From an uncultured Candidatus Saccharibacteria bacterium (GTDB lineage: Bacteria; Patescibacteriota; WWE3; UBA101185; UBA10185), in assembly GCA_964643995.1 (NCBI GenBank), contig CAZXUJ010000001.1, positions 5,622-69,621 of the forward strand: DNA of 64,000 bases, in the 5' to 3' direction. The position numbers and the translations under genes are program-made. Shown here piece by piece: positions 14,916 through 39,868 of this stretch. How positions within the stretch are numbered: position 1 is the stretch's first letter; the number at the start of each line of letters is the position of its first letter. The notes beneath the pieces are model-generated. The model was not told the DNA's origin. It saw only the letters and a program-made list of their open reading frames with translations, and ran no database searches.

Positions 14916-14990
14916 TGGAGCGAGAGACGGGGATCGAACCCGCGACCTCTTCCTTGGCAAGGAAGCGTTCTACCACTGAACTACTCTCGC
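14916..14990 (-). tRNA. tRNA-Gly (anticodon GCC)
   Basis: Reverse complement GCGAGAGTAGTTCAGTGGTAGAACGCTTCCTTGCCAAGGAAGAGGTCGCGGGTTCGATCCCCGTCTCTCGCTCCA; anticodon stem CTTCC/GGAAG, loop TTGCCAA. Confidence 0.85.
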
Positions 14991-15047
14991 GAGCAAAGCG
15001 AGTGAGAGGTAGTGATGTACTCATCACGTCACTCTCGCAATCAAGCT
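14991..15047 (-). promoter_or_regulatory. Conserved structured leader/upstream element of tRNA-Gly(GCC) (hairpin GTGATG-TACT-CATCAC)
   Basis: Immediately 5' of the tRNA on the minus strand. Homologous element at 39809-39868 upstream of tRNA-Gly(CCC) with a compensatory T:A to C:G change. Confidence 0.45.
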
Positions 15048-17140: not shown

Positions 17141-18085
17141 CTACCTACTTACAACGTCTTCCGGGAGAGGTACATAGGTTGTACCAATGCTTCCAATACC
17201 CTCAATTGCGATGTAAGCGTTTTCACGTGGAATTGTCATGTAGCGCCCGGAATCACCTTCGCTGACAATTGAAATTCCCTCACGATGAGTCGCTACATCT
17301 AAGCAACTGGCGCCTTCGCCACATCCTGAGGAACCTACATAAAAACTTACCCCTGCGCGCTCAAAACTTGCAAAACCCGATTTGTAGTTCGCGCTTTCAA
17401 GCCAAAGCCAATCACCGGTGTAGGTGATGGTGAAGAAGTACCTCTCTTGGTTTCTTTCTCCCTCACTTGGGAATGTTTCAACCAAAAGCTCTATGATCGA
17501 GAAAACCGGCAATTCAACGAAGAATCTTCTGCCTGATGCAACCACGTAATTGTCAATGGTCGCATCATAGAGCGTTAAGTCAGCATTAGCAGTCAAGGTC
17601 ACATCGAGTAAAAAGGTCCCCTCGTCGAGGCCAAACTCCAAACCAGCGGGCAACCAGTTTTGCCCGATTTTGTTATCCAGATGGGCGTAAACTTCGATTT
17701 CACCCCACCGATAACCCCCATTAGGTAAACCGTTATGCAAGTACTGCTCCCAGCTGACTCTGATAGTTTCCTCGTCTAGGCTGGACAAGCGCAAACCATT
17801 TTGCGTCTCCTCCCACTGTGTGTAAACTTCAACATCACAGGTTTGGTGCTCGTAAGGAACTTGATCCCCATCACCCTTAATTTGAACTACACAGGGTGTG
17901 CTGGTAGGCGTTTCGGTTGGGGTATTGGTTGGCGTGCTTGTCGGCGTTTCGGTAGGGGTATTGGTTGGTGTGCTTGTCGGCGTTTCGGTTGGGGTATTGG
18001 TTGGTGTTTGAACACTCTCAGGACAGCCGCAGGCACTGAAAAACAATACCATAAATACAAAACTAATAACCAATTTCTTAGACAT
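17141..18085 (-). CDS. Lipoprotein/secreted protein with Thr-Pro tandem-repeat linker
   Basis: Signal peptide plus Cys (LFFSACGC); PTNTPTETPTSTP x3 encoded by a 36-bp tandem repeat; globular C-terminal domain unknown. Confidence 0.6.
   Translation of the reverse strand: MSKKLVISFVFMVLFFSACGCPESVQTPTNTPTETPTSTPTNTPTETPTSTPTNTPTETPTSTPCVVQIKGDGDQVPYEHQTCDVEVYTQWEETQNGLRLSSLDEETIRVSWEQYLHNGLPNGGYRWGEIEVYAHLDNKIGQNWLPAGLEFGLDEGTFLLDVTLTANADLTLYDATIDNYVVASGRRFFVELPVFSIIELLVETFPSEGERNQERYFFTITYTGDWLWLESANYKSGFASFERAGVSFYVGSSGCGEGASCLDVATHREGISIVSEGDSGRYMTIPRENAYIAIEGIGSIGTTYVPLPEDVVSR
17895..18010. repeat. 36-bp tandem repeat x ~3.2 (ggtgtgcttgtcggcgtttcggttggggtattggtt), in-frame within CDS 17141-18085
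   Basis: Three near-identical consecutive 36-mers seen directly; encode TPTSTPTNTPTE units on the minus strand. Confidence 0.85.
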
Positions 18086-18581
18086 GTTTTTGTCCTCCGT
18101 ATTGACTGTTGATAAGGATTAGTATTAGCTTCTCCGCCAAGAAGCTAAAGTAACCGCGCTGAATACAAATTATGTATTGTACTCAAAACGGTTACTTCAA
18201 CATAGCGGAACAGCTTAGCTAACAGTAGGTTTTCAATGTTCAGAAACCTTGTTTGCAACAAAATTTCTGACCCCATTTTATACTATAGGTTGTCTGTAGC
18301 TTGAAGTATCTTGAGCCAACCTGACATATTCTGACTAGCGTTTTTTGCTTTAGTTATAAATGAAATTTAAGGTTTATGGAGCACCAGTCGAGTCTGGAAA
18401 CCCACAAGCAAATTATACTCTCCAGGCTAGAAATGAGACAAATAAGACACTATAAAAAAGGGAATGGTTCTATAATTCTCTAGGTTATGCAATTTTGCCG
18501 AGAATCGTTTGGTTAATAGTTTTGTATATAGTATTTAAGCCTCGTCAGTACGTTGTAGCCAGTGATATAATCGCAATTGAA

Positions 18582-20402
18582 ATGAAGTTAACTACCGTTA
18601 AAATAGAAAATTTTAGATCCATAAAAGATCCCATAGAGGTTTACATCGAGGACACTACCACTATTTTTTTAGGTGCTAACGACCACGGCAAAAGCAACTT
18701 GCTCTATGCGATTCAGAAATTAAACGCTGACAAGCCTATTTTAGAAGAAGAACGAAATTGGGATGTGCCTCAAAGTGTAGGTGAGCCACGAATTGAGTGG
18801 TCATTTTCTTTGTCGAATGAAGATAAGGATAGTTTAACAAAGATGTGTGTTCCTGCCGTTGTTAAAGTAGCTGAGAATAAAGATGGTGTGGAGGCTCAGT
18901 CTGCAGAAGTATTGGATGCCACGGTTTATTTAAAAACTAATTCTTTAGGGACACTGACTTTTGAACGTTTGGGAGTCAATACTCCGATTAAGGTGATAAG
19001 CGTTCCTGATGAGTTTGAAATACCCAATTTAGAAGAAAATGAGAGCAAGTTAGTTGCAATGATACCGAATGTGGAGCTTTTTGAATCTCCAGAAATTAAG
19101 GTTATCGATAGTATAACTAGGGAAGAATTGGATAAAAGTGACTTTATGCAGGGTATATTCATGTTGGCAGGAATTTGGGACCAAAAGGATGAGGTGTTTA
19201 ATCAAAATCCCAAAACTGAAAAAATGCTATCCCAAGCTTCTGATAAATTAACCAAGGAGTTAAGGAATACCTGGCAACAAGGATCCAAACTAGAATGGAG
19301 GTTTTCCCACCTTAGAGAGGAAAACCGTATTGGAATAACCATTGGGGATCCTGCTGTTAGCACTACTTTTGTCAAGCCTTCGTTAAGATCGTCTGGTTTT
19401 AAAACATTCTTTTACATTTCAATGACGATTGATGCCCGTTCCAGAAAAAATAATAATGGTCATTTTATATTTATGTTTGATGAGCCAGGTACATATCTTC
19501 ATCCAGCCGCGCAAATAGATTTACAACGTAGCTTTGAAAAGATTGCGGAAAAAAATCAAATTATATATACAACTCACTCCATATTTCTGATAAGTAAAAA
19601 CTACCCGAAGCGAAATAGAGTGGTCTTAAAAACTGATAATGGCACCAAAGTTGATCAGAAGCCTTTTAGAAAGAATTGGAAAGCCGTTAGAGAGTCCCTA
19701 GGTGTTTTATTAAGCAATAACTTTTTAATAGCAGACAAGACTTTATTAGTAGAGGGACCTTCGGACATCGTTTATATTTGGTTAGCGTTGCGAAAACTTA
19801 AAGATGCTGGAAAGGTAGATATAGATTTAAACGATATAAATATGGTAGATGCTAATGATAAAAGAAATTATATCTTAATGGCGAAGTTGATGTTAACCGA
19901 GGGTAGAAAGGTTACTGCATTAGTGGATGGTGACGATGGAGGTAAAAGTATTCAGGATGATTTAAAGAAGCTATGTGGTGGAGAGTTGAAAAGTAAAGAC
20001 CTCAAGCCGTTCATTTTGGAAAGCAATAAATCTATAGAAAATGTTTTGGCGGATGTAGACACATTAAAGATTGCGGCAAAACAAGTCGCTACAGAGCTTG
20101 TGGGCGCTGGGTTACTTGCATATAAATCTGGTGTGGCTATTGATACTGCGGTTAACGATATTAAGGAGGATTCCAGTGTGACGTTAGGTAAGACCCTAGA
20201 AAATGTTACAGGTACATGGTTTGAAAACGAGCAATCTTTATCAAAATTGCAGGTAGCAATGAAGTATGAGGACATTGTTCTTAGTGGTGGCGGAAACATA
20301 AACGAACGTTCCGCGGAAACATGGTTTAAGAGACTTCAAAAAGAGATGGAACTACGTAGTGAAAAAGAGCCAGAAAGCGGAGTTATAGATCAAATAGATT
20401 AG
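18582..20402 (+). CDS. OLD-family (overcoming lysogenization defect) ATP-dependent nuclease: N-terminal ABC-type ATPase + C-terminal TOPRIM
   Basis: MKLTTVKIENFRSIKDP...FLGANDHGKSNLLYAI (OLD N-terminus/Walker A); FMFDEPGTYLHPAAQ...IIYTTHS (Walker B, H-loop); C-term LLVEGPSDIVYIW (TOPRIM). Start set to Met at 18582; ORF extends to 18495. Confidence 0.8.
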   Translation: MKLTTVKIENFRSIKDPIEVYIEDTTTIFLGANDHGKSNLLYAIQKLNADKPILEEERNWDVPQSVGEPRIEWSFSLSNEDKDSLTKMCVPAVVKVAENKDGVEAQSAEVLDATVYLKTNSLGTLTFERLGVNTPIKVISVPDEFEIPNLEENESKLVAMIPNVELFESPEIKVIDSITREELDKSDFMQGIFMLAGIWDQKDEVFNQNPKTEKMLSQASDKLTKELRNTWQQGSKLEWRFSHLREENRIGITIGDPAVSTTFVKPSLRSSGFKTFFYISMTIDARSRKNNNGHFIFMFDEPGTYLHPAAQIDLQRSFEKIAEKNQIIYTTHSIFLISKNYPKRNRVVLKTDNGTKVDQKPFRKNWKAVRESLGVLLSNNFLIADKTLLVEGPSDIVYIWLALRKLKDAGKVDIDLNDINMVDANDKRNYILMAKLMLTEGRKVTALVDGDDGGKSIQDDLKKLCGGELKSKDLKPFILESNKSIENVLADVDTLKIAAKQVATELVGAGLLAYKSGVAIDTAVNDIKEDSSVTLGKTLENVTGTWFENEQSLSKLQVAMKYEDIVLSGGGNINERSAETWFKRLQKEMELRSEKEPESGVIDQID

Positions 20403-20449: not shown

Positions 20450-22231
20450 TTACTTTCTATTTTCCTCATTTTTCTTTACACTCAACATTAAACTTTTCTT
20501 TTCATCTGACCAGTACAGTTTTATATCCTTCTCTTTTTTAGGCGGATACTTTTCTAAAAAATCTTTGTTCTCGGCTACCATAAAAACCTTACAATATATG
20601 GAACCTTTAATATCTTTCAGCTGCCTTGCTTTTAAAAACCCTTGTCTAACAAGTTTATCCCTAGTAGATGGATGTACACTATAGTCCGACTGTATCTGCC
20701 AATCTGATATCCACTGGCCTTCATTACTATAAACATGTTTTAGATCATGCGGTATAACGCCTTCCTTAATATTTCTCCAACAATCAGCACATCTAATACC
20801 GTCAAGATTCCACCACATTTTGTCGCCTGCGAAGGATCTTCCGCATATTCCACAGGTATAGCTTCCACCATCAGATACCTCAAGGAAGAAACCCTCGGGC
20901 TCTTTTTCCAATCTTCGCTTACGAATATTTTCTATGGCATCAAACTTTCCCATATGCCTTGCCAGTTGCACAATATTGTTTAGTTCCAAATGTGATCTTT
21001 TATTAGGGTCGCTAATTGGGTTTGGTTCTTCCTTAATTTTCCCAGTTATCGTTATTAAATCTTCCTCACGCTCGTAGCCTTTAAGTTTTCCGGATATAAA
21101 TCCAAGCCTATTTGATAAACCCTCTGGCATTAACCGCCAATTAGTTTTTTCAAGTGTATCTTTAATGAGTTTTTGAAGATCATACATGCTTACACGCTTA
21201 TTCCTCTGAGTTTCAGTTTCCTGAAATGAAAACGGAACAATTACAAACTGACCCATCTCAGGTTTATCGAGTGAAAATTTAACATAGCCTTGTTTTTCAA
21301 AAAGGGGAGTTAGGAGCTTTTCAAGTTCTCCGATTCCAAGCTTTTTAATTTTGGAAACCTGCTCATAAACTGGATTATCGTATTTACGCATCTCATCGTC
21401 ATGCGCAAACTTGGAATATTCCAATGCTTCTAATATTTCGAGGTTTTCTTGACCCTGTTTATCATCAAGGCAGTATTCCGCACGGTATTTTTCCAAAAGC
21501 GCTTTGTTTTCAGCTTCTTCTTTCGCCCGTTCTTCATCTTTTTTACTAAAATCATCTACGTCAATATCTTTATAACCGCAGGAAGCACATTTGGTAGTCC
21601 ATGTAATGACTTTATCCTTAACTTTAGTTGTGACTTTTACTTCTTTACCGCATTTAGGGCAAAGATTTGGTTTTGGAACATAAACTTCTCCGTTATCATA
21701 AATAGCTTGGCGTTTCTTACAGGCAGAACAGTCAAACATGAAACAAACCCGCATCGGGGTATCCGTATAATCCTCAAGGACTTTAGAACTGTAGCTCATT
21801 TGAGTGTTGCATTTTGGGCATATAACATTTTTTGGTTCTGTCGCGTTATCGTAATAATCCTGCTTGGCTTTATCCTCAGCCATTATTTTCTCAATAAAAT
21901 CCTTTTTTCTTTTATATTCGTTTGTTTTAACTACAAATAAATGCCTGCCTAAAATAAGGCCAAAATCATGTTCTTTTTTCTCATCTGTTAAGGATTTAAG
22001 TTCGGGATCGTTAAAGTGTTCTTTGTATGCTTTTCGCCAAAATTCTATTGTGCGTAGACATTCGCGTATGGTTGAGAGGTCGTATATATCTATGTAGTAT
22101 TGCTCGGGTTTTAGATATTCCACTAAAAACAATATACTACTTTCTAATGTGAGTAGAATATTCACGATTTTCTTATAAAAAACTCGTGTTATTCTGGTAA
22201 TATAAGTTAAGATGACAAAATCAGAAGACAT
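20450..22231 (-). CDS. Large multi-zinc-ribbon protein, unknown function (start uncertain)
   Basis: At least three C-x2-C...C-x2-C pairs (CPKCNTQM...CSACKK; CPKCGKE...CASCGY; CGICGRS...CADCWRN). Convergent with OLD gene, divergent from MTase. First ATG would overlap the MTase start by 20 bp, so the true start may be an internal Met (e.g. ~21883) or a non-ATG start. Confidence 0.45.
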   Translation of the reverse strand: MSSDFVILTYITRITRVFYKKIVNILLTLESSILFLVEYLKPEQYYIDIYDLSTIRECLRTIEFWRKAYKEHFNDPELKSLTDEKKEHDFGLILGRHLFVVKTNEYKRKKDFIEKIMAEDKAKQDYYDNATEPKNVICPKCNTQMSYSSKVLEDYTDTPMRVCFMFDCSACKKRQAIYDNGEVYVPKPNLCPKCGKEVKVTTKVKDKVITWTTKCASCGYKDIDVDDFSKKDEERAKEEAENKALLEKYRAEYCLDDKQGQENLEILEALEYSKFAHDDEMRKYDNPVYEQVSKIKKLGIGELEKLLTPLFEKQGYVKFSLDKPEMGQFVIVPFSFQETETQRNKRVSMYDLQKLIKDTLEKTNWRLMPEGLSNRLGFISGKLKGYEREEDLITITGKIKEEPNPISDPNKRSHLELNNIVQLARHMGKFDAIENIRKRRLEKEPEGFFLEVSDGGSYTCGICGRSFAGDKMWWNLDGIRCADCWRNIKEGVIPHDLKHVYSNEGQWISDWQIQSDYSVHPSTRDKLVRQGFLKARQLKDIKGSIYCKVFMVAENKDFLEKYPPKKEKDIKLYWSDEKKSLMLSVKKNEENRK

Positions 22232-23057
22232 TAAAATTAATCAAATAATTCTTGGGGATTGCATAACAGGTATGGAAAAACTACCTGATAGGTCAGTTGA
22301 CTTAGTGATTGCTGATCCCCCTTACAATGTATCAAAAGGTAACAAATGGAAGTGGGATAACAGCGTTAAATTACAGGGATTTGGTGGAAATTGGAATAAA
22401 ACCATGGAAGATTGGGACAACATGTCACTTCAAGATTATTGGAGTTTCACTGAAGCTTGGTTAAATCAGGTTTGTAGAGTGTTGAAACCCTCGGGGTCTC
22501 TTTGGGTATATGGAACTTATCACAATATTGGAATAATTAATGTAATTATGCAGAAGCTGGGGGTCGAAATGTTAAATGAAATAATATGGTTTAAACGAAA
22601 TTCATTTCCTAATTTATCGGGCAGACGATTTACTGCCAGTCATGAAAATTTGATTTGGGCCCACGTCGGTGGAAAAAAGCGACAGTACTATTTTGATTAC
22701 AAGAAAATAAAGGAAATGCAATTTCCTGAAGACAAGATAAAAACTCCAGGAAAACAGATGAGAACTGTATGGGACATACCAAATAACAAGGAGGCTTCGG
22801 AATTGAAATTTGGAAAACATCCTACCCAGAAGCCGTTGCGTTTATGTAGAAGAATTTTATTAGCAACAAGCAGGCCATCAGACTTGATATTGGTCCCATT
22901 CTGCGGTTCTGGAAGTGAATGTGTTGCCGCAAAAATGCTTGATAGGAACTTTATAAGCTTCGAAGTAGATCAGAAATATGTTGATATCGCTAATAAGCGT
23001 ATTGAGAATACTGATGTTAAAGCAAATTTATTTAATCTTTCTTTGGATACTCTATGA
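22212..23057 (+). CDS. DNA amino-methyltransferase, beta-class (N4-cytosine or N6-adenine)
   Basis: Motif IV LVIADPPYNV precedes motif I ILVPFCGSGSECVAAK (beta-class order). Confidence 0.8.
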   Translation: MTKSEDIKINQIILGDCITGMEKLPDRSVDLVIADPPYNVSKGNKWKWDNSVKLQGFGGNWNKTMEDWDNMSLQDYWSFTEAWLNQVCRVLKPSGSLWVYGTYHNIGIINVIMQKLGVEMLNEIIWFKRNSFPNLSGRRFTASHENLIWAHVGGKKRQYYFDYKKIKEMQFPEDKIKTPGKQMRTVWDIPNNKEASELKFGKHPTQKPLRLCRRILLATSRPSDLILVPFCGSGSECVAAKMLDRNFISFEVDQKYVDIANKRIENTDVKANLFNLSLDTL

Positions 23058-23911
23058 ATGAAGTCGGTAAAAAATTAATTCCACCTGTTATTAAGTGGAG
23101 CGGTAGCAAGAGACCTGTTGCTTATCAGTTATCACAGTATTTTCCAGAGACTAAAAGGTTCTTTGATCCATTCGTTGGAGGTGGTTCTATATTACCGTTT
23201 TTCTTTGGTAAAAAGGCTTTTGTTGGTGACGTAATTCCAGAGTTAATATTTCTTTGGGAATCGATTAAAACGGATCCAGACAAAGTTATTAATGAATATA
23301 GAACTAGATGGGAATCACTTAAGAATAATGGATACACTGAGTATTACTCCATTCGGGACACATTTAACGTAACAAGAAATCCTATGGATTTCTTGTTTTT
23401 AAGTAGAACCTGCGTGAACGGTTTGATTAGGTATAACAAAATAGGGGAATTTAATAATTCATTACATCATACACGCTCAGGTATAGATCCCGAACGTTTT
23501 GCCCCTATAATTAAAATGTGGAGCAAATGGATTCAACAAGTGTCGTTTCTCAATCAGGATTATCGATTAACATTAAAGGAAGTTACTAAAGGAGACACGG
23601 TATTTTTAGATCCCCCATATGTGGGTACAAAATCCAGATACATACCTCAAAAATTCGACTATGCAATTTTCTTTGATGAACTTGAGAGGCTAAACAGCAC
23701 TGGTGTTAACTGGATTCTCACCTTAGACGGTAATGCAGGGGATAGATATTATGATAGCAAGATTCCAAAAGAATTATATAAGGCCAGTATTAAGGTAAAT
23801 ACAGGAAAGTCACCGTTTTCAAAAGTAATGAATAATAAACAAGACAGTATTAGCGAATCAGTGTACTTCAACTTTCAACCAATTGCCAAAATGCCTAACG
23901 CGGTTTTGTAA
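23054..23911 (+). CDS. Dam-family (D12 class, alpha) N6-adenine DNA methyltransferase
   Basis: N-term IKWSGSKRP...FDPFVGGGS (motif I) then LDPPYVGTKSRY (motif IV); start overlaps previous MTase stop (ATGA). Confidence 0.8.
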   Translation: MNEVGKKLIPPVIKWSGSKRPVAYQLSQYFPETKRFFDPFVGGGSILPFFFGKKAFVGDVIPELIFLWESIKTDPDKVINEYRTRWESLKNNGYTEYYSIRDTFNVTRNPMDFLFLSRTCVNGLIRYNKIGEFNNSLHHTRSGIDPERFAPIIKMWSKWIQQVSFLNQDYRLTLKEVTKGDTVFLDPPYVGTKSRYIPQKFDYAIFFDELERLNSTGVNWILTLDGNAGDRYYDSKIPKELYKASIKVNTGKSPFSKVMNNKQDSISESVYFNFQPIAKMPNAVL

Positions 23912-25855
23912 AAATGATTCCAACCATTTAGCAGATTCCTTAGTTTTTATATGCAGATGTACCTGTCCATTTTCTATAAACTCCACGCCAACTATTACAT
24001 CAGAGTTACTTTTTGAGTTTGCAATATTCATATCCTCGTATTTTGTATATCTAAAAGCAGCTACCGAGAAAATCTTTTGCTCCTTTTCCTTGTACTCTTT
24101 ATCGAATACTCTCCATGAGACTTCATCTTTTTCTCTATATACATTAGGCCCAGTTCTGGTTAATTCCTTAACATATTTGATAAGTCGGGATCCAATATCC
24201 GTTTCTAACGATACGCTCGTATCTTTAGATTCGATGCTTAAAATATATACTTGGTTATTTGAGTGTTTTATTTGAAAAATATGGTCAGGTCTTTTAGAGA
24301 GTGTACCAGATACACGTGGTAAGGATACCCATCTATACTCGGTACCATCTTCAAAATTAAAGATTGATATACCACTCCAATTACCTCCTGGAGGGTTACA
24401 AAGACCTTCGAAGAAAGTCTCATCTTTATGTAAGTAAAATATTTCATGTAATACCGAATCTACATCGTGTTCGCCAAACTTTTTTGGCATAAAGGTATTA
24501 ATTGGTTTGTCTAATCCTGCTTGTAAGTGTTTCTCATATTTAGTTGGTATAACATACATTACTTTGTCAGATCGTTCTGTTGTTTTAGTGTCCACAATTA
24601 TTGCGTTGCTATAATTTAATACCGCTTGCCAGAGTCCATTTGTTTGAGCCAATTTCCAAATGTTACCAGTAACTTCTTTTAATGTTGTAGTAGGACAAGG
24701 ACCGTAAATTATTGTTAAAACATCGACATCATTTTCTCCTGTTACCATGCGCAAAAGTGGTACTAGTCCTCTGTCCGGTCGTGAGTCATCCCCTCTAGGC
24801 TTGAATCCAGCAACCCACGCTATGAACAATGGTTTCTCTCCATTTTTTATCCAATTTATAGATTCTGCGTCTACCTTTGATCTGTATATTGTTGCTACAA
24901 GCTGACCAAGTTTATGTCGTTCAGTAGTACTTAGCAAGCAAAACGGAAGATCTCCCGAACACACAGCTACAGCCTTGTTATTTGAAACACTTGAAAGCAA
25001 CTTCTTAAATGAATTAGATGTTGGAATTGAAACGCGCTTATTCCATGGTATTCTCTTATCAATAAGTAAATCGGCTATTTGAGATCCTTTGTCAAAGTTC
25101 AACAATTTTTTCCATTCGTTGTCTTGTAATATGCCACCTTTGTTTTTCCTTTGGCTGGCAAGAAACAAAGTGAGTTCCAACGCTTTATTAGCTAAACTTT
25201 CTGCATAGCTGCTGTAATTGTCATTTTCTAGGATAGCTTTGATAAATAGCTGTAGTTCTTTACCAGCAAAGAAACGAGAATATTTTTTGTATAAGTCTGC
25301 AGAAATGGATGGGCTGGGAGAATAAATTGGAAGTGTAATAGTGCTATATCTTTTACCAAGGGATAGGTATGAAAACGGAATGATTGGGTTTGGAAATCTA
25401 GCGGCCTTAGTATTTCTATCTGAATCTAACTCTATACCGCCTAATTCTGCAAAATATAAATACGGTATTTTAGCCTGAGCACTACTAATAGCCCTGCCAC
25501 TTCTTTGCCATGCATTATTACCTGCGGGTAAGGCACCACAAAATTCCATTGATAGGATTGGCTTTTCGATTTGTAACCCATTTTTTTCATATTGCTTCGT
25601 AACTATTGCATCTGTAGCCTCTCTAAGTTTTGCCCCGTTTACTTCTAAAACTGTTTTAATGTCATAATCCCATCTATCGTACCCTGGAAATAGCTGTATC
25701 TCATATCTTATTTCAGAGTTGGAAAGTGAAAATTTTGGAACATAAAGTGGACCATCGATAGGTACAAGTTCAAGCTCCAATGATGAGGAAATAAGCCTTA
25801 GTGCTTCTTCACATTCAAGAATATTATCACCGTAGATATTTAGTTTTGTTACCAT
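23858..25855 (-). CDS. Putative restriction endonuclease (candidate Type IIS-like partner of the two MTases)
   Basis: 665-aa ORF convergent with and overlapping the 3' end of the Dam-like MTase gene. C-terminal PD-x17-ExK-like arrangement: RPDHIFQIKHSNNQVYILSIESKD. No other family signal. Confidence 0.4.
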   Translation of the reverse strand: MVTKLNIYGDNILECEEALRLISSSLELELVPIDGPLYVPKFSLSNSEIRYEIQLFPGYDRWDYDIKTVLEVNGAKLREATDAIVTKQYEKNGLQIEKPILSMEFCGALPAGNNAWQRSGRAISSAQAKIPYLYFAELGGIELDSDRNTKAARFPNPIIPFSYLSLGKRYSTITLPIYSPSPSISADLYKKYSRFFAGKELQLFIKAILENDNYSSYAESLANKALELTLFLASQRKNKGGILQDNEWKKLLNFDKGSQIADLLIDKRIPWNKRVSIPTSNSFKKLLSSVSNNKAVAVCSGDLPFCLLSTTERHKLGQLVATIYRSKVDAESINWIKNGEKPLFIAWVAGFKPRGDDSRPDRGLVPLLRMVTGENDVDVLTIIYGPCPTTTLKEVTGNIWKLAQTNGLWQAVLNYSNAIIVDTKTTERSDKVMYVIPTKYEKHLQAGLDKPINTFMPKKFGEHDVDSVLHEIFYLHKDETFFEGLCNPPGGNWSGISIFNFEDGTEYRWVSLPRVSGTLSKRPDHIFQIKHSNNQVYILSIESKDTSVSLETDIGSRLIKYVKELTRTGPNVYREKDEVSWRVFDKEYKEKEQKIFSVAAFRYTKYEDMNIANSKSNSDVIVGVEFIENGQVHLHIKTKESAKWLESFLQNRVRHFGNWLKVEVH

Positions 25856-26141
25856 ACAAGTCTATCCAATTTAATTGATATCCCAAAAATTTATCAAGAA
25901 ATATTAATTTCACTTTATAGGATATTGCAATATGGCCTTTTTATCAAGGAACTTAGGAAATTTTAAGCGGGATACTAATCTTGCACACTTTTTCGCTAAA
26001 ATAGAATTAATAAGCTTAAAAACTTATTTAAGAAATCTGAACAAAGGCACTTGTCACTTTAGACTTTAGCCATTGAACACGCCAAATGACCAAAAAGCAT
26101 ATGTAAAGTATGTAGTTATTTTTGTGCCTAAAAGGAGGCTT

Positions 26142-27470
26142 ATGGAAGAAAAATTAAATATAGTTTACGTACAAGTTAATAAATTAAACCCTGCCCCATA
26201 TAACCCCAGAAAGTGGGATGAGGACGCGTGTACAAAGTTAAAAGAAAGCCTAACAAAATTTGGCTTTGTTGACCCGCTGATAGTTAACTCGGCTCCAAAT
26301 AGAGAAAACGTGGTCATCGGAGGACACTTCAGGCTCAAAATGGGTATAGAGCTTGGTTTCAAAGAAGTTCCCGTTGTCTACGTTAATATTCCTGAGCTTG
26401 AAAAAGAAAAGGAATTAAACCTAAGACTTAACAAAAACGTTGGTACTTGGGATTTTAAACTATTGGCAGAGTTTGATGCATCGTTACTTGGTGATATTGG
26501 CTTTTCGAGCGAGGAGTTGGACGATATATTTGGAATCGACGATACACCTGAAGAATTCGACCTTCAAAAAGAACTTCAGAAGCTAAATATTCAAAATATT
26601 AATATCAAAAAAGGCGATGTGTATAAGCTTGGTGATAGTAGGCTAATGTGTGGCGACTCTACCGTCGACACAGATGTTCTAAAGCTATTTGGTGATGAAA
26701 AAGCCGATATGTGCTTTACCGACCCACCCTATATTCTTGATTACTTAAAAGGTAAGAAAAAAGCTGGTAATGCAATTACTGGCTTTGGTGCGAAACGTGA
26801 TCGTAGGTACCTTGAAACCGATGTTTTGCCCGATGATTTTACTGAAAAATGGATGGCAAATATTGCAAAGATCCAAAAGGAAAGCTTTTCAATTATTGTT
26901 TATGAAAATTGGAAAAACATACGAACCATTTGGGGCGAAATGGAAAAGTATTGGAAAGTTAAAAATATGATTGTGTGGCATTTACCAAATCGTACCCAAG
27001 GGTTTGCAGGCAAGTATAGATTCTTTTCCAAGCACGATATTGCAATGGTCGGAGCTTCTCCGAATGCCAATATCGATTATAACTTAGAACCCGAAGAAGA
27101 CGGTCTTCAAAACGAATATGAAACAGCACTTTATGCGATTTCAGGTAAACCTCAATGGGAAAGCTATAAGCATGGTAAAAAGTACCAGCCAACGGACTTT
27201 ATTGAGTATGTTGCCTCGGATGAAAAAAGCTCAGGCCAAGGCATCATATTTGGCACGAAACCACTTGAAATACTAATTCCATACATCAAAGTACTTACAA
27301 AACGCGGAGATCTAATTGTTGAACCTTTCGGTGGAAGTGGTTCAACTCTAATTGCGGCTACAAAAATGAACCGCAGATGTTACTTAATGGAAAAGTCGCC
27401 TGTTTATGCTGAAGTTATTAAAAACCGTTGGGAAAAACTTACGGGTCTTAAAGGGGAGCGATTATTATGA
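26142..27470 (+). CDS. ParB-like nuclease domain fused to beta-class DNA amino-methyltransferase (phage-type)
   Basis: N-term ParB/Srx fold (LNPAPYNPRKW...VIGGHFRL); MTase motif IV FTDPPYILDY then motif I VEPFGGSGSTLIAA. Start set to ATG at 26142, which has AGGAGG 6 nt upstream; ORF extends to 26073. Confidence 0.75.
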   Translation: MEEKLNIVYVQVNKLNPAPYNPRKWDEDACTKLKESLTKFGFVDPLIVNSAPNRENVVIGGHFRLKMGIELGFKEVPVVYVNIPELEKEKELNLRLNKNVGTWDFKLLAEFDASLLGDIGFSSEELDDIFGIDDTPEEFDLQKELQKLNIQNINIKKGDVYKLGDSRLMCGDSTVDTDVLKLFGDEKADMCFTDPPYILDYLKGKKKAGNAITGFGAKRDRRYLETDVLPDDFTEKWMANIAKIQKESFSIIVYENWKNIRTIWGEMEKYWKVKNMIVWHLPNRTQGFAGKYRFFSKHDIAMVGASPNANIDYNLEPEEDGLQNEYETALYAISGKPQWESYKHGKKYQPTDFIEYVASDEKSSGQGIIFGTKPLEILIPYIKVLTKRGDLIVEPFGGSGSTLIAATKMNRRCYLMEKSPVYAEVIKNRWEKLTGLKGERLL

Positions 27471-27886
27471 GTAAAGCAATTGAAGATAGGCAGAAAAAAG
27501 AACGCGCGCTACTTCTTGAAACGTTTAAGAAGACTCCAATTATTCAACTGGCTTGCGAAAAGTCTGGTGTTGGCAGAGCAACATACTATCGATGGCGACA
27601 TGAAGATTCCGAATTTGCACTTCAAGCAGATTTGGCTTTAGAGGAAAGCGTGGGGCTTATGAATGACCTTGCCGAATCTCAGCTTTTATCTGCGATAAAA
27701 GAAAAAAACATTACAGCTATTATATTTTGGCTTAAGAATAGACATAAGGCTTATACAAACAGGGTTGAAATAAATGCAAAAGTAGAATCAAAAAATGCGG
27801 AACTTAGCCCAGAACAAGAAGATCTAATAAAAAAAGCGCTTGGCTTATCAAGCATTGTTGCAAGCGGAGGTACGAAGGATGATTAA
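27467..27886 (+). CDS. Phage terminase small subunit-like HTH protein
   Basis: 139 aa, HTH IQLACEKSGVGRATYYRWRHEDSEF, immediately upstream of and overlapping terL; ATGA overlap with previous gene. Confidence 0.5.
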   Translation: MSKAIEDRQKKERALLLETFKKTPIIQLACEKSGVGRATYYRWRHEDSEFALQADLALEESVGLMNDLAESQLLSAIKEKNITAIIFWLKNRHKAYTNRVEINAKVESKNAELSPEQEDLIKKALGLSSIVASGGTKDD

Positions 27887-29396
27887 CTCCAGTTTATGCA
27901 CGGATGATATTGATAAGATAGTAAAAGACCCTAAGGTCAGAAAAGAACTAACCCGCAAAAGTCATTATTTGTTTTTCCATATTTACTTTGCTAGGTACGT
28001 CAAATATCCAACAGCTGATTTTCAAAAAGAAATATTTGAGCTGACTGAAAAGCCAGACGCGATGCTGTATGAAATCATTGCTTTTAGGGGTTCTGCTAAG
28101 TCTACAATAATGTCGTTATCACTCCCGATTTGGTCACTTATTAATGAGTCACAGAAGAAATATATTTTGCTTTTGAGCCAAACTCAGCAACAGGCTAGGC
28201 AAGCGTTAATCAATATAAAACGAGAGCTTGAAAGTAATGCATTACTTATTAATGACTTTGGACCATTTGATGAGGATAGTGATGAGTGGCGCACTAATTC
28301 ATTAGTTATTCCTAAATTTGATGCTCGAATTTCCGCGGCTTCTACTGGTGAAAGTATTCGAGGTGTAAAGCACGGTGAGTATCGACCTGATTTAATAATC
28401 GCGGACGATGTGGAGGATTTATCATCAGTTAAAACAAAAGAAGGTCGGGATAAAACGTACGATTGGTTTACTGGTGAAATCGTTCCCGCAGGTGATGTAA
28501 ATACTCGAATATTTTTAATTGGTAACCTTCTACATGATGGCTCTTTAATGGTTCAAATTAAAGAACAAATTCTTAGTAAAAAATTACGGGGTATATTCCG
28601 CGAGTACCCATTGGTAAGTGAAGACAAACAAATATTGTGGGCTGGCAAGTTCCCAAACAATGAGGCCATTGAGGCGTTAAAAGCTACAGTACCTAGTGAA
28701 TCAGCCTGGTCACGGGAATATTTGCTTAAAATAATCTACGACGACGATCGAGTCATAAAACCTGAGTGGATTCATAGATACTCCGATTTACCTCAAATAT
28801 CATGGGAAGGTTACCAATATACTGCCGTTGGTGTTGATATTGCAGTTTCTGAAAAAGAGCATGCGGATTATAGTGCAATTGTTGCAGGTATGGTTTTTAA
28901 AAAGAACGGTAATACATCCATTTATATATTGCCCTATCCAGTTAATAAGCATTTAACTTTTCCCGAACTGGAAGAAGCAATCCGTGATTTAGCTAGGTCA
29001 TTACCTACAAAAAGAAAAGTTAAATTATTCATTGAGGACGTTGGGGCTCAAAAAGCATTGGTTCAAAGGCTACAAATGTATGGGTACGATGTAGAAGGCA
29101 TAGTACCTAGGGCTGATAAACGAACTAGACTTGGTTACACGGCACAACCGTTAAAATACAAGACCGTGCAGTTGTGTAAATATGGCTGTGATGAATTAGT
29201 AGACCAGCTAAGCAATTTTGATTATGTAAGGCATGATGATCTTGCTGATGCCTTTTCACTGCTTGTAAATAAGGTTTTAGACGACGCTACAATAAAAAAG
29301 ATACAACCAAATATCCGTGTTCTATCTTCCACTAATAGTTTTAGAACGGTAGGTGGTGGAAGTGCCAACGACGTTGCAAGTTTCTTAAGAAGCTGA
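27879..29396 (+). CDS. Phage terminase large subunit (ATPase + RNase H-like nuclease)
   Basis: Walker A FRGSAKST, Walker B DLIIADDVED, C-terminal nuclease motif GVDIAVSEKEHADYSAIV. Start set at ATG 27879, preceded by GGAGGT. Confidence 0.75.
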   Translation: MINSSLCTDDIDKIVKDPKVRKELTRKSHYLFFHIYFARYVKYPTADFQKEIFELTEKPDAMLYEIIAFRGSAKSTIMSLSLPIWSLINESQKKYILLLSQTQQQARQALINIKRELESNALLINDFGPFDEDSDEWRTNSLVIPKFDARISAASTGESIRGVKHGEYRPDLIIADDVEDLSSVKTKEGRDKTYDWFTGEIVPAGDVNTRIFLIGNLLHDGSLMVQIKEQILSKKLRGIFREYPLVSEDKQILWAGKFPNNEAIEALKATVPSESAWSREYLLKIIYDDDRVIKPEWIHRYSDLPQISWEGYQYTAVGVDIAVSEKEHADYSAIVAGMVFKKNGNTSIYILPYPVNKHLTFPELEEAIRDLARSLPTKRKVKLFIEDVGAQKALVQRLQMYGYDVEGIVPRADKRTRLGYTAQPLKYKTVQLCKYGCDELVDQLSNFDYVRHDDLADAFSLLVNKVLDDATIKKIQPNIRVLSSTNSFRTVGGGSANDVASFLRS

Positions 29397-29560: not shown

Positions 29561-29657
29561 GTCTTAACATAGCTTAAGATCAAATAAAAGACTTGCCTTT
29601 GATTAGTTTTTGCGTCATCCATTGGCGCTAGTAAAAACTTATTTCAAAGGAGGTCTT

Positions 29658-30557
29658 ATGGATCAAGCTAAACAGGTTGAAACTGCTACGCCACAGTATA
29701 AAAACCTAGTTAAAAACTTATGGCGTAAAAGCTGGCTTCTAAAGCTTGTACTTATTGCACTTTATCCGCTATCTCTTACTTATTTAATTTGGAAATCTCA
29801 TAGACTGCCGAAAGTTGTAAAAGGCATACTTCTTTTAGTAATGTGGTTTTTTGTTATTGTATTTACTGCTGCTTTTTCAAGTCCAACAAGTCAGCAAGCA
29901 TATCAAGAAGGTCAAAAAGCAGGGCAAGAAGCCATTCAGAAGAAAGAAACTACTGAAAAGACAGCCACAACACAAGTTGCTGAGAACAACCAGCTAGTTC
30001 AAATACCTACTGAGCAACCTCAACCGACCGCAGCAGCAACACCGACTCCTACACCCACACCCACGCCAACAGCGCAGGTAGCCGAAAAGCCCGCGGAGCA
30101 AAAACCATATAACATTTACGACGATTTATGGAAAGCTCTGGATACTAGCTTAAAGACTCGAAAAAACATTGATATTAAATATGACGCGACTACAAAGATG
30201 GCAACGCTTTTGGTAAACGAAAACGAAACTTATTGGGATGAAACCGCTATGTTAAACAGTGCATATGCAAGACTCGTTAAATATGGCAAATCTGCCTTTG
30301 AAATAAACGGAGTAGATCAGGTAGGTGTAAACATAAGCACGAAAATGATGGATTCACATGGTAAAGAAAGCGTAGAGGAAGTAATCAGAGTAGCAATTAC
30401 CAAAACAAGCTACAAAGACTATAACTGGGATAACATGCAATACGTCGACGATTTCTACAACAAGATGGTGGATGCGGTAAGCGTTAATTACATAAATCCT
30501 GGGATTTTTAGAAAGCTGAATCTAGATAAGGTTCACCTTAACTTACTTTTGAATTGA
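29658..30557 (+). CDS. Membrane-anchored protein with Pro/Thr/Ala-rich linker (PTPTPTPTPT), unknown
   Basis: Start at ATG 29658, preceded by AGGAGG; two TM helices; low-complexity linker; C-terminal globular domain. Confidence 0.5.
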   Translation: MDQAKQVETATPQYKNLVKNLWRKSWLLKLVLIALYPLSLTYLIWKSHRLPKVVKGILLLVMWFFVIVFTAAFSSPTSQQAYQEGQKAGQEAIQKKETTEKTATTQVAENNQLVQIPTEQPQPTAAATPTPTPTPTPTAQVAEKPAEQKPYNIYDDLWKALDTSLKTRKNIDIKYDATTKMATLLVNENETYWDETAMLNSAYARLVKYGKSAFEINGVDQVGVNISTKMMDSHGKESVEEVIRVAITKTSYKDYNWDNMQYVDDFYNKMVDAVSVNYINPGIFRKLNLDKVHLNLLLN

Positions 30558-37259: not shown

Positions 37260-37279
37260 GTCATCAATGTGTTGATGAC
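37260..37279. promoter_or_regulatory. Perfect 8-4-8 palindrome GTCATCAA-TGTG-TTGATGAC overlapping the serine recombinase start codon
   Basis: Seen directly; position suggests an operator or recombinase-binding site. Confidence 0.4.
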
Positions 37280-38579
37280 AGAACAAGAAAATAAAAATCT
37301 AAAGTATTGTCTCTATGCTAGAAAATCTACTGAAAGTGATGAACGACAAGCAATGTCAATAGATTCCCAAATCAAAGAAATGATGGAACAGGCTAACAAA
37401 GAAGGTCTGAATATTGTTGAAATTCGCCAAGAAAGCCATTCCGCTAAACTTTCAGGGGCTAGGCCAGTGTTTAAACAATTGATCTATGACATAGATAAAG
37501 GATTATTCAATGCAATTCTTACTTGGGCACCAGACAGACTAAGTAGAAACGCAGGAGATTTGGGGGCTTTAGTTGATTTAATGGATCGTAAACAACTTTT
37601 GCACATCAAAACCTATTCCCAGACATTTTCCAACAATCCAAACGAAAAGTTTCTTCTTATGATTCTTTGTTCTCAGGCTAAGCTTGAAAATGATCACAGA
37701 GGTGAAAATGTTAAACGGGGTATTAGAGCAAAATGTGAACGAGGTTGGAGACCCTGCATGTCTCCACTTGGTTATCATAATAGAACGATAAATGGAGTTA
37801 ACGATCTTGTATTAGATGAGGTTAAAGCTCCCATCTTACGGGAAATGTTTGAATTGGTTGCATACTGTGGGTTTAGCGGGCGCTCTGTTAAAAGATATTT
37901 AGATAAGGAAAAGAACTTTCTATCAAGACGGGGCAAAAAGTTAGCGCTTGGGAGACTTTACGAAATTCTTAAAAATCCATTTTACTGTGGGGATTTTGAA
38001 TATCCTGTTGGAAGTGGAAACTGGTACAAAGGAAAACACGAACCCCTAATAACCAGAGAACTATTCAACAAAGTACAAGAAAAGCTGGCCACTTCTGATA
38101 AACCAAATTCAGAAAAACATGACTTTCCGTTCACACGAACAATAAGATGTTCAACCTGCGGATCGCACCTTACGGGAGAGGAAAGAACAAAGCAATTAAA
38201 GAATGGAAACAGAGTTAAGTATGTTTATTATCACTGTCTGCGTGGCAAGGACAAAGACTTTGACTGCAAGGAACCCTATATCCGTGAGGATGACCTGGTA
38301 ACACAATTAGTTGAAATTATTAACGAGGTGGAAATCGATAAGGATGCTTTTACTAAACTTTTACAGGAGGAATATACAAGGTTTGCAAAATTTAAAGCTA
38401 TTTTAAACGAAGATTCTCAAAATAATGAAGAAAAGCAAAGGCTAAAAGAAATTGATATTAAAACTTTTGCAAAACACATTTTAAGATTCGGATCTAATCA
38501 GGAAAGAAGGGAAATCTTTACATTAATTAAGCAACCACTTTATCTTAAGAACATGAAACTGTATGTACACATTAACTAG
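37269..38579 (+). CDS. Large serine recombinase (resolvase/invertase catalytic domain + recombinase domain + zinc ribbon)
   Basis: YARKSTESDERQAMSIDSQ (catalytic Ser region), RLSRN, Cys cluster CSTCGSH...YYHC. Annotated start is GTG; alternative ATG at 37275. Confidence 0.8.
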   Translation: MLMTEQENKNLKYCLYARKSTESDERQAMSIDSQIKEMMEQANKEGLNIVEIRQESHSAKLSGARPVFKQLIYDIDKGLFNAILTWAPDRLSRNAGDLGALVDLMDRKQLLHIKTYSQTFSNNPNEKFLLMILCSQAKLENDHRGENVKRGIRAKCERGWRPCMSPLGYHNRTINGVNDLVLDEVKAPILREMFELVAYCGFSGRSVKRYLDKEKNFLSRRGKKLALGRLYEILKNPFYCGDFEYPVGSGNWYKGKHEPLITRELFNKVQEKLATSDKPNSEKHDFPFTRTIRCSTCGSHLTGEERTKQLKNGNRVKYVYYHCLRGKDKDFDCKEPYIREDDLVTQLVEIINEVEIDKDAFTKLLQEEYTRFAKFKAILNEDSQNNEEKQRLKEIDIKTFAKHILRFGSNQERREIFTLIKQPLYLKNMKLYVHIN

Positions 38580-39733: not shown

Positions 39734-39808
39734 TGGAGCGAGGAACGGGGTTCGAACCCGCGACCTCTTCCTTGGGAAGGAAGCATTCTACCACTGAACT
39801 ATCCTCGC
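39734..39808 (-). tRNA. tRNA-Gly (anticodon CCC)
   Basis: Reverse complement GCGAGGATAGTTCAGTGGTAGAATGCTTCCTTCCCAAGGAAGAGGTCGCGGGTTCGAACCCCGTTCCTCGCTCCA; loop TTCCCAA; differs from tRNA-Gly(GCC) at a handful of positions. Confidence 0.85.
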
Positions 39809-39868
39809 AACAAAGTGAAGAGGAGTAGCGATGTACTCATCGCGTCATCCTCGCAACAAAGTGAAATC
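39809..39868 (-). promoter_or_regulatory. Conserved structured leader of tRNA-Gly(CCC) (hairpin GCGATG-TACT-CATCGC) with flanking ~20-nt direct repeat
   Basis: Homolog of 14991-15047. Direct repeat (c/t)atcctcgcaacaaagtgaa at 39802-39821 and 39849-39868. Confidence 0.45.

Follow-up and report, generated by a model that had tools for sequence, protein, structure and literature searches.

A predicted BsmI-family Type IIS restriction-modification cassette in an uncultured Candidatus Saccharibacteria bacterium

A stretch of 64,000 nucleotides from an uncultured Candidatus Saccharibacteria bacterium (contig CAZXUJ010000001.1, positions 5,622 to 69,621 of the forward strand), referred to here as the window, carries a cassette of three genes: two adjacent DNA methyltransferase genes, M1 and M2, and a convergent gene, R, encoding a protein of 665 amino acids (aa). 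The cassette very probably constitutes a Type IIS restriction-modification system belonging to the BsmI/Mva1269I family, one that is complete and apparently functional. The observations behind this reading are the homology of R, its modelled fold, the intact catalytic residues and the conserved linkage of the three genes, while the order of cleavage, the monomeric state, the overhang and N6-methyladenine (m6A) as the modification are drawn from BsmI and Mva1269I. An earlier note on this DNA had proposed a Type IIS-like system in which each strand is methylated by an enzyme of its own and the nuclease is of the PD-(D/E)xK type, a proposal that is borne out by R, which is a homologue of BsmI in both sequence and fold.

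The 665-aa protein is related to BsmI along its full length by sequence and, as judged from a structural model, by fold. A phmmer search of PDB sequences, where BsmI is represented by entries 9f38, 9ezd, 9ez5 and 9ez7, matched residues 5-602 of R to 9f38_A with an E-value of 6.1e-91, and the BLASTP alignment of the two proteins displays 33.6% identity over 614 columns (E 1.8e-100). The three open reading frames (ORFs) and their motifs are not chance patterns; the match of R to BsmI reaches E 6e-91. Among family models, R is matched by the PADLOC model REase_II, 'Type II restriction enzyme' (PDLC03434; 1.4e-130, residues 5-651), and by none in Pfam, NCBIfam or PHROGs. The AlphaFold2 model of R, built from an alignment of 65 homologues, has a mean predicted local distance difference test score (pLDDT) of 90.3 and a predicted template modelling score (pTM) of 0.91. 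The best Foldseek match of this model in the PDB is again BsmI (9f38_A), aligned over the whole chain with an E-value of 5.5e-60 and template modelling (TM) scores of 0.85 and 0.83. The four BsmI entries are the only significant matches in that search, the next structure outside BsmI appearing at E 1e-3 with a TM score of 0.10. The model and its superposition on BsmI are consistent with three domains: an EcoRI-like N-terminal domain, a central domain and a FokI-like C-terminal domain. The earlier note had considered that the protein might prove to lack a nuclease fold; the modelled fold is that of BsmI, at a TM score of 0.85.

The Type IIS enzyme BsmI recognises GAATGC (1/-1) and acts as a monomer with two different active sites (PMC11889245, PMC1950550, PMC3017599). 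Its N-terminal EcoRI-like site, 90-PD-X17-E-X12-QR-123, nicks the bottom strand first, after which the C-terminal FokI-like site, 527-PD-X17-E-X-K-548, cuts the top strand; metal is bound by D9, D91 and E109 in the first site and by E470 and D528 in the second (PMC11889245). Both sites have counterparts in R. Residues D10, D82, E104, Q117 and R118 of R align column by column with BsmI D9, D91, E109, Q122 and R123, and the further metal ligands D10 (BsmI D9) and E462 (BsmI E470) are present in the first and the second site, respectively. In an alignment of 236 homologues, 119 of them collected by a search with R and 117 by a search with BsmI, the residues D10, E104, Q117 and R118 are invariant and D82 is aspartate in all sequences except one (235 of 236); E462, P523, D524, E542 and K544 are invariant throughout. 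The PD-(x17)-E-x-K arrangement that the earlier note had singled out as a possible nuclease core is the equivalent of the BsmI top-strand site at residues 527-548, with the same spacing. That part of its reading of the active site stands; the second, N-terminal site, D82-X21-E104-X12-QR, had been overlooked. E542 of R is the equivalent of BsmI E546, the residue altered in the Nb.BsmI nickase mutation E546V (PMC11889245, PMC1950550). Since both active sites are intact at the level of residues, R is expected to be a double-strand cutter rather than a nickase.

The two methyltransferases belong to different classes. The translations place motif IV before motif I in M1, the order of the beta class, and motif I before motif IV in M2, the order of the alpha class, and the stop codon of M1 and the start codon of M2 share the tetranucleotide ATGA; both the opposite motif orders and the 4-bp overlap had been described correctly in the earlier note. 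DPPY is the usual form of motif IV in enzymes that produce m6A, and both M1 and M2 carry it. The ATGA junction suggests translational coupling of the two genes within a single M1-M2 operon. Family models agree with the class assignments. M1 matches Pfam PF01555 (N6_N4_Mtase, 1.1e-52), and its nearest NCBIfam model is CcrM (2e-70), with a score far below the equivalog cutoff; M2 matches PF02086 (MethyltransfD12, 7.4e-33) and, above the cutoff, the Dam family model TIGR00571 of NCBIfam (5.6e-42). Among solved structures M1 matches CcrM (6pbd, 2.1e-52) and DpnA (5hfj, 5.8e-24), and the best match of M2 is DpnM (2dpm, 2.4e-18). Both proteins are covered by a single PADLOC model of 626 positions, PDLC03302, in which positions 5-264 match M1 and positions 356-626 match M2; one model spans the pair because the methyltransferases are fused in some relatives. 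A literature search found no statement of which strand is methylated by M1.BsmI or by M2.BsmI.

The association of R with these methyltransferases is a constant feature of its relatives. A scan of one genome per species yielded 221 stretches encoding a relative of R, 80 of which were kept for a test of gene layout. The order of R, a convergent homologue of M2 and a homologue of M1 was found in 78 of these 80 genome loci, and in the other two the contig ends just past M2. All 82 testable related loci (L002-L087) display the same layout of R, M2 and M1. Outside the 80 genome loci it is seen in L002-L004 and L085-L087, and it was observed around a homologue 58% identical to R (P0016), around one from a Parcubacteria genome (P0027), and beside nucleases that are 72%, 60% and 53% identical to BsmI (L085, L086 and L087). 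The possibility, raised in the earlier note, that homologues of the 665-aa protein are not linked to methyltransferases is clearly contradicted by these loci: in each of the 82, an R homologue stands beside the same pair of methyltransferases. M1 and M2 are 69% and 48% identical to their counterparts in L085, a locus whose nuclease shares only 33% identity with R. In seven loci, L087 and six others, the counterparts of M1 and M2 are fused into one ORF.

R and M2 are not only convergent but overlap at their 3' ends. The earlier note had put this overlap at about 50 bp, and it measures 54 bp from the gene coordinates, leaving no space for a terminator between the two genes. An R/M2 3' overlap is present in 74 of the 82 related loci, ranging from 4 to 238 bp, with 84 and 120 bp as recurrent values. 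The overlap is thus a habit of the family rather than a local accident, and it may couple the expression of the convergent genes, a regulatory role being inferred from the arrangement.

Possible regulatory additions are seen at some of the related loci. In L085 a 78-aa ORF with an HTH_26 domain lies between the two methyltransferase genes. In Parcubacteria relatives (L003, 8804-10276; L004, 4511-5983; the same in L006) the beta-class methyltransferase is a 490-aa protein that also bears LexA_DNA_bind and Peptidase_S24 domains. This fusion hints at a self-cleaving, repressor-type control of the system in those relatives. The locus in the window contains no gene for a controller (C) protein, and the HTH_26 ORF and the LexA-like fusion are likewise absent there. 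The intergenic region upstream of R, which separates it from a divergent ParB-methyltransferase gene, presumably contains the R promoter; a promoter scan of this region found 14 sites against 16.7 expected from shuffled sequence. The promoter and terminator scan as a whole was uninformative, its counts being equal to those of shuffled sequence.

By analogy with the characterised enzymes, the system is proposed to operate as follows. M1 and M2 would be co-transcribed and translationally coupled; their target would be asymmetric, most probably GAATGC/GCATTC, and each enzyme would methylate one of its strands at the N6 position of an adenine. R would scan the DNA as a monomer and bind sites that lack methylation. 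The bottom strand would be nicked first, by the N-terminal EcoRI-like site (D10, D82, E104, Q117, R118), the C-terminal FokI-like site (E462, D524, E542, K544) would then cut the top strand one base past the recognition site, and the predicted product would carry a 2-nucleotide 3' overhang. Monomeric sequential cleavage, the bottom strand preceding the top, is established for both BsmI and Mva1269I (PMC11889245, PMC3017599).

The recognition sequence was approached through its depletion in the DNA around homologous cassettes. Hexamers were counted in 582 kb flanking 81 cassettes, with the cassettes themselves excised, and compared with the expectation of a maximal-order Markov model. GAATGC/GCATTC occurs 165 times against 246 expected, a ratio of 0.67, and none of the other 2016 non-palindromic words is more strongly depleted; with the count confined to the 13 loci that encode an R of 43% or higher identity to the window protein, it ranks second of 2016. 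Fourteen one-base variants of GAATGC, together with the BsrDI and BtsI sites, all fall between 0.96 and 1.16 in the same flanks. A per-locus sign test, in which 62 of 79 loci lie below the GAATGC expectation (p 3.6e-7), is not relied on, because small Poisson counts bias it towards 'below', and the pooled ratio and the hexamer rank are used instead. The cassette itself holds none of the 20 GAATGC sites of the window. Taken with the precedent of Mva1269I and the conservation of the methyltransferases, the depletion in the flanks indirectly supports GAATGC as the probable recognition sequence of R.

Several points weigh against this assignment or speak for the chief alternative, by which R shares the family and the mechanism of BsmI with a different recognition sequence or cut position and represents a new Type IIS specificity in the subfamily bearing GNNAWQR. 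R shares no more than 33.6% identity with BsmI. The sequence GNQAWQR, the patch with which BsmI reads the two central adenines (PMC11889245), is GNNAWQR in R, with BsmI Q119 replaced by N114; this patch is the one place at which recognition residues were compared. The aspartate-to-glutamate spacing of the N-terminal site is 21 in R against 17 in BsmI, and falls outside the range of 13-17 quoted for the bottom-strand site (PMC1950550). Distant members of the wider group, BsrI and BtsCI, recognise other sites (PMC3017599). The depletion test covers cassette-bearing loci only, without control genomes that lack the cassette, and the window shows no clear avoidance of GAATGC: its 20 sites compare with 19.9 expected under the Markov model and with 28.7 +/- 5.6 in dinucleotide shuffles. 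The low identity is nevertheless no argument for a new site, because Mva1269I, which is 30.2% identical to BsmI, cuts the same sequence (PMC11889245). M1, moreover, is 69% identical to the methyltransferase that accompanies a nuclease 72% identical to BsmI. As for the substitution in the adenine-reading patch, asparagine occupies position 114 in 115 of the 119 members of the R clade, and the GAATGC depletion was measured specifically at loci of that same clade. A separate specificity for R is on this balance unlikely.

Two further explanations concern the nature of the cassette as a whole. The earlier note had offered as an alternative a cassette resembling DpnII, in which Dam-like and DpnA-like methyltransferases accompany a GATC endonuclease. 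The methyltransferase half of that suggestion is sound, as DpnM is the best solved match of M2 and M1 matches DpnA, at the E-values given above; M1 is far closer to CcrM, however, the same pair stands beside BsmI-like nucleases in all 82 testable loci, and the nuclease, a full-length homologue of BsmI unlike R.DpnII, refutes the alternative as far as the nuclease is concerned, leaving it next to no probability. The other explanation is a decayed or partial system, with R inactive or a natural nickase, or with the methyltransferases being of the orphan phage type and serving to protect a mobile element. Phage-type genes (a ParB-methyltransferase, TerS and TerL) do adjoin the cassette, site avoidance is lacking in the window, and BsrDI and BtsI have large subunits that are known as natural nickases (PMC1950550). 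All three ORFs are full length, however, and align end to end with their homologues, neither active site has lost a catalytic residue, and, with both sites on one chain, no partner subunit is missing. Decay or partial function would accordingly seem very improbable, and a complete BsmI-like system is the preferred reading.

There is also a slight chance that the subfamily characterised by GNNAWQR and D-X21-E differs from BsmI in its recognition sequence or cut geometry, or that the cassette is carried as cargo by an element of phage origin in an ultra-small bacterium and serves competition between elements rather than host defence. A subfamily that differs from BsmI would offer a new Type IIS enzyme or a nickase scaffold.

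The family of R is large and poorly labelled. It is encoded by more than 1,400 protein clusters and by the 221 stretches found in species-representative genomes, and its GNNAWQR/D-X21-E subfamily is common in metagenome-assembled genomes of Patescibacteria, Bacteroidota and Chloroflexota. Homologues that carry a name from their source, few in this subfamily, are labelled 'hypothetical protein', and PADLOC alone recognises the family, with no model in Pfam, NCBIfam or PHROGs. No relative of R was found among the INPHARED phages; the PLSDB plasmids contain three, all annotated as hypothetical protein. The system is in itself an ordinary one, its archetype BsmI having already been cloned, engineered and crystallised, and what sets it apart is the annotation gap and the depletion of GAATGC across the family. 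A family model for R would mend many annotations, and the strict three-gene linkage combined with the GAATGC depletion offers a cheap computational prediction of specificity for the whole family. Diverged relatives outside thermophilic Bacillus may also serve as nickase scaffolds.

The window looks chromosomal: eight tRNA genes are scattered along it, and it encodes an ABC-F protein, a PEP-utilising-enzyme mobile-domain protein and many glycosyltransferases, at a G+C content of about 37%. The exact proteins are also found on a 403-kb NCBI contig and on an 11-kb Logan contig, and the locus is present in Logan run SRR8893623. The genes around the cassette are listed in Table 1. The OLD-family gene 1.8 kb from the cassette is a stand-alone candidate for a defence nuclease. 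The 593-aa ORF preceding M1 matched no family above curated cutoffs in Pfam, NCBIfam, PADLOC or PHROGs, giving only weak zinc-ribbon matches; translated from the first ATG, it shares 20 bp with the start of M1, and the Logan gene call starts later, giving 571 aa. On the other side, the ParB-methyltransferase, TerS and TerL genes look like a prophage remnant. The ORF next past TerL (29610-30557) has no Pfam or PHROG family and is followed by glycosyltransferase genes.

Two tRNA-Gly genes bracket the OLD-family gene, the cassette and the genes for the terminase subunits, glycosyltransferases, a large serine recombinase and DUF3644, and each tRNA gene is followed by a similar 42-nucleotide stretch on the plus strand. 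The pair may mark the borders of an integrated element or may simply be paralogous tRNA genes. This setting suggests that the cassette resides in a mobile or defence island or in a degraded prophage, with putative boundaries. Among the fetched loci, the OLD-family gene, the 593-aa ORF and TerL have matches in L001 alone, itself the same sequence as the window, and the ParB-methyltransferase (70% identical) and TerS recur beside a homologous cassette only in L058 (1034-2615), from a Saccharibacteria metagenome-assembled genome. The neighbouring genes are not counted as parts of the cassette, because they were not found beside other cassettes. Farther upstream, a 314-aa ORF on the minus strand (17141-18085) has an N-terminal hydrophobic stretch and a cysteine, a putative lipoprotein-like signal by eye, and a Pro/Thr-rich tandem repeat, PTNTPTETPTST, in three copies at 17895-18007. 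The DNA of this repeat has a unit of 36 nucleotides with a sub-periodicity of 12, and the local G+C content is raised to 0.47.

Table 1. Coordinates of the cassette and of neighbouring features in the window
Feature	Position	Strand	Size	Description
M1	22212-23057	+	281 aa	beta-class N6-adenine DNA methyltransferase; DPPY (motif IV) at residue 35, FCGSG (motif I) at residue 230
M2	23054-23911	+	285 aa	alpha-class (D12/Dam family) N6-adenine DNA methyltransferase; FVGGG (motif I) at residue 40, DPPY (motif IV) at residue 186
M1 stop/M2 start overlap	23054-23057	+	4 bp	ATGA, read directly from the sequence
R	23858-25855	-	665 aa	Type IIS restriction endonuclease of the BsmI family; one chain bearing two distinct active sites of the PD-(D/E)xK type
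R/M2 tail-to-tail overlap	23858-23911		54 bp	from gene coordinates
R, C-terminal top-strand FokI-like site	24224-24289	-		P523-D524-X17-E542-S-K544, from translation; peptide RPDHIFQIKHSNNQVYILSIESKD, exactly PD-X17-E-X-K
R, N-terminal bottom-strand EcoRI-like site	25502-25612	-		D82-X21-E104-X12-Q117-R118, from translation; includes the GNNAWQR patch
R upstream intergenic region	25856-26072		217 bp	between R and the divergent ParB-methyltransferase gene; R promoter presumed here
tRNA-Gly genes (anticodons GCC, CCC)	14916-15045 and 39734-39861			91% identical, 24.8 kb apart
OLD-family protein	18495-20402	+	635 aa	AAA_15 ATPase and OLD-like TOPRIM; PADLOC AriA, Old and GajA matches
Zinc-ribbon ORF	20450-22231	-	593 aa	several CxxC zinc-ribbon-like pairs
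ParB_N-methyltransferase fusion, TerS, TerL	26073-29396	+		directly beside R; TerL matches phrog_38, 1.3e-72
Large serine recombinase	37269-38579

Among known systems, the DpnII cassette (DpnM, DpnA and R.DpnII, acting on GATC) resembles that of the window in having an alpha-class Dam-like and a beta-class methyltransferase side by side, but R is unrelated to R.DpnII and its predicted target is asymmetric rather than GATC. The monomeric BsrI and BtsCI and the heterodimeric BsrDI and BtsI share with R the paired motifs PD-Xn-E-X12-QR and PD-Xn-EXK and the 2-nucleotide 3' overhang, the latter as predicted for R (PMC1950550, PMC2831314). These four enzymes recognise other sites, and BsrDI and BtsI split the two active sites over two subunits; the sites of these two heterodimers are not depleted near the cassettes studied. 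The similarity of the four to BsmI is limited (PMC1950550), and BtsCI has a low overall identity with these enzymes (PMC2831314). Mva1269I, an isoschizomer of BsmI, is by description a monomer that cleaves sequentially through an EcoRI-like site near its N-terminus and a FokI-like site near its C-terminus (PMC3017599), a scheme predicted for R as well, and it sets the precedent that an identity of about 30% within the family is compatible with a shared GAATGC specificity.

The closest likeness is to BsmI of Geobacillus stearothermophilus (PDB 9f38, 9ezd, 9ez5, 9ez7). R departs from it in several respects: its bottom-strand site begins with TD (T81-D82) instead of PD, where the family motif has (P/A/F)D, and has the spacing X21 instead of X17, the patch GNNAWQR stands in place of GNQAWQR, the region aligned to the residues that are mutated in Nb.BsmI is of another sequence and another length, and the overall identity is 33.6%. 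R and M2 overlap by 54 bp in the window, whereas a small gap separates their counterparts in BsmI-proximal loci, and the source of the window, at 37% G+C, is not a thermophilic Bacillus like that of BsmI. The two nucleases nonetheless agree in size (665 aa in R, 676 aa in BsmI) and the model of R matches over its whole length an enzyme described as having three domains, at a TM score of 0.85. Both active sites, the extra metal ligands and the identical PD-X17-E-X-K spacing are present in R, and the window cassette and the close relatives of BsmI have the same partners, one methyltransferase of the beta class and one of the D12 class, encoded convergently to the nuclease gene.

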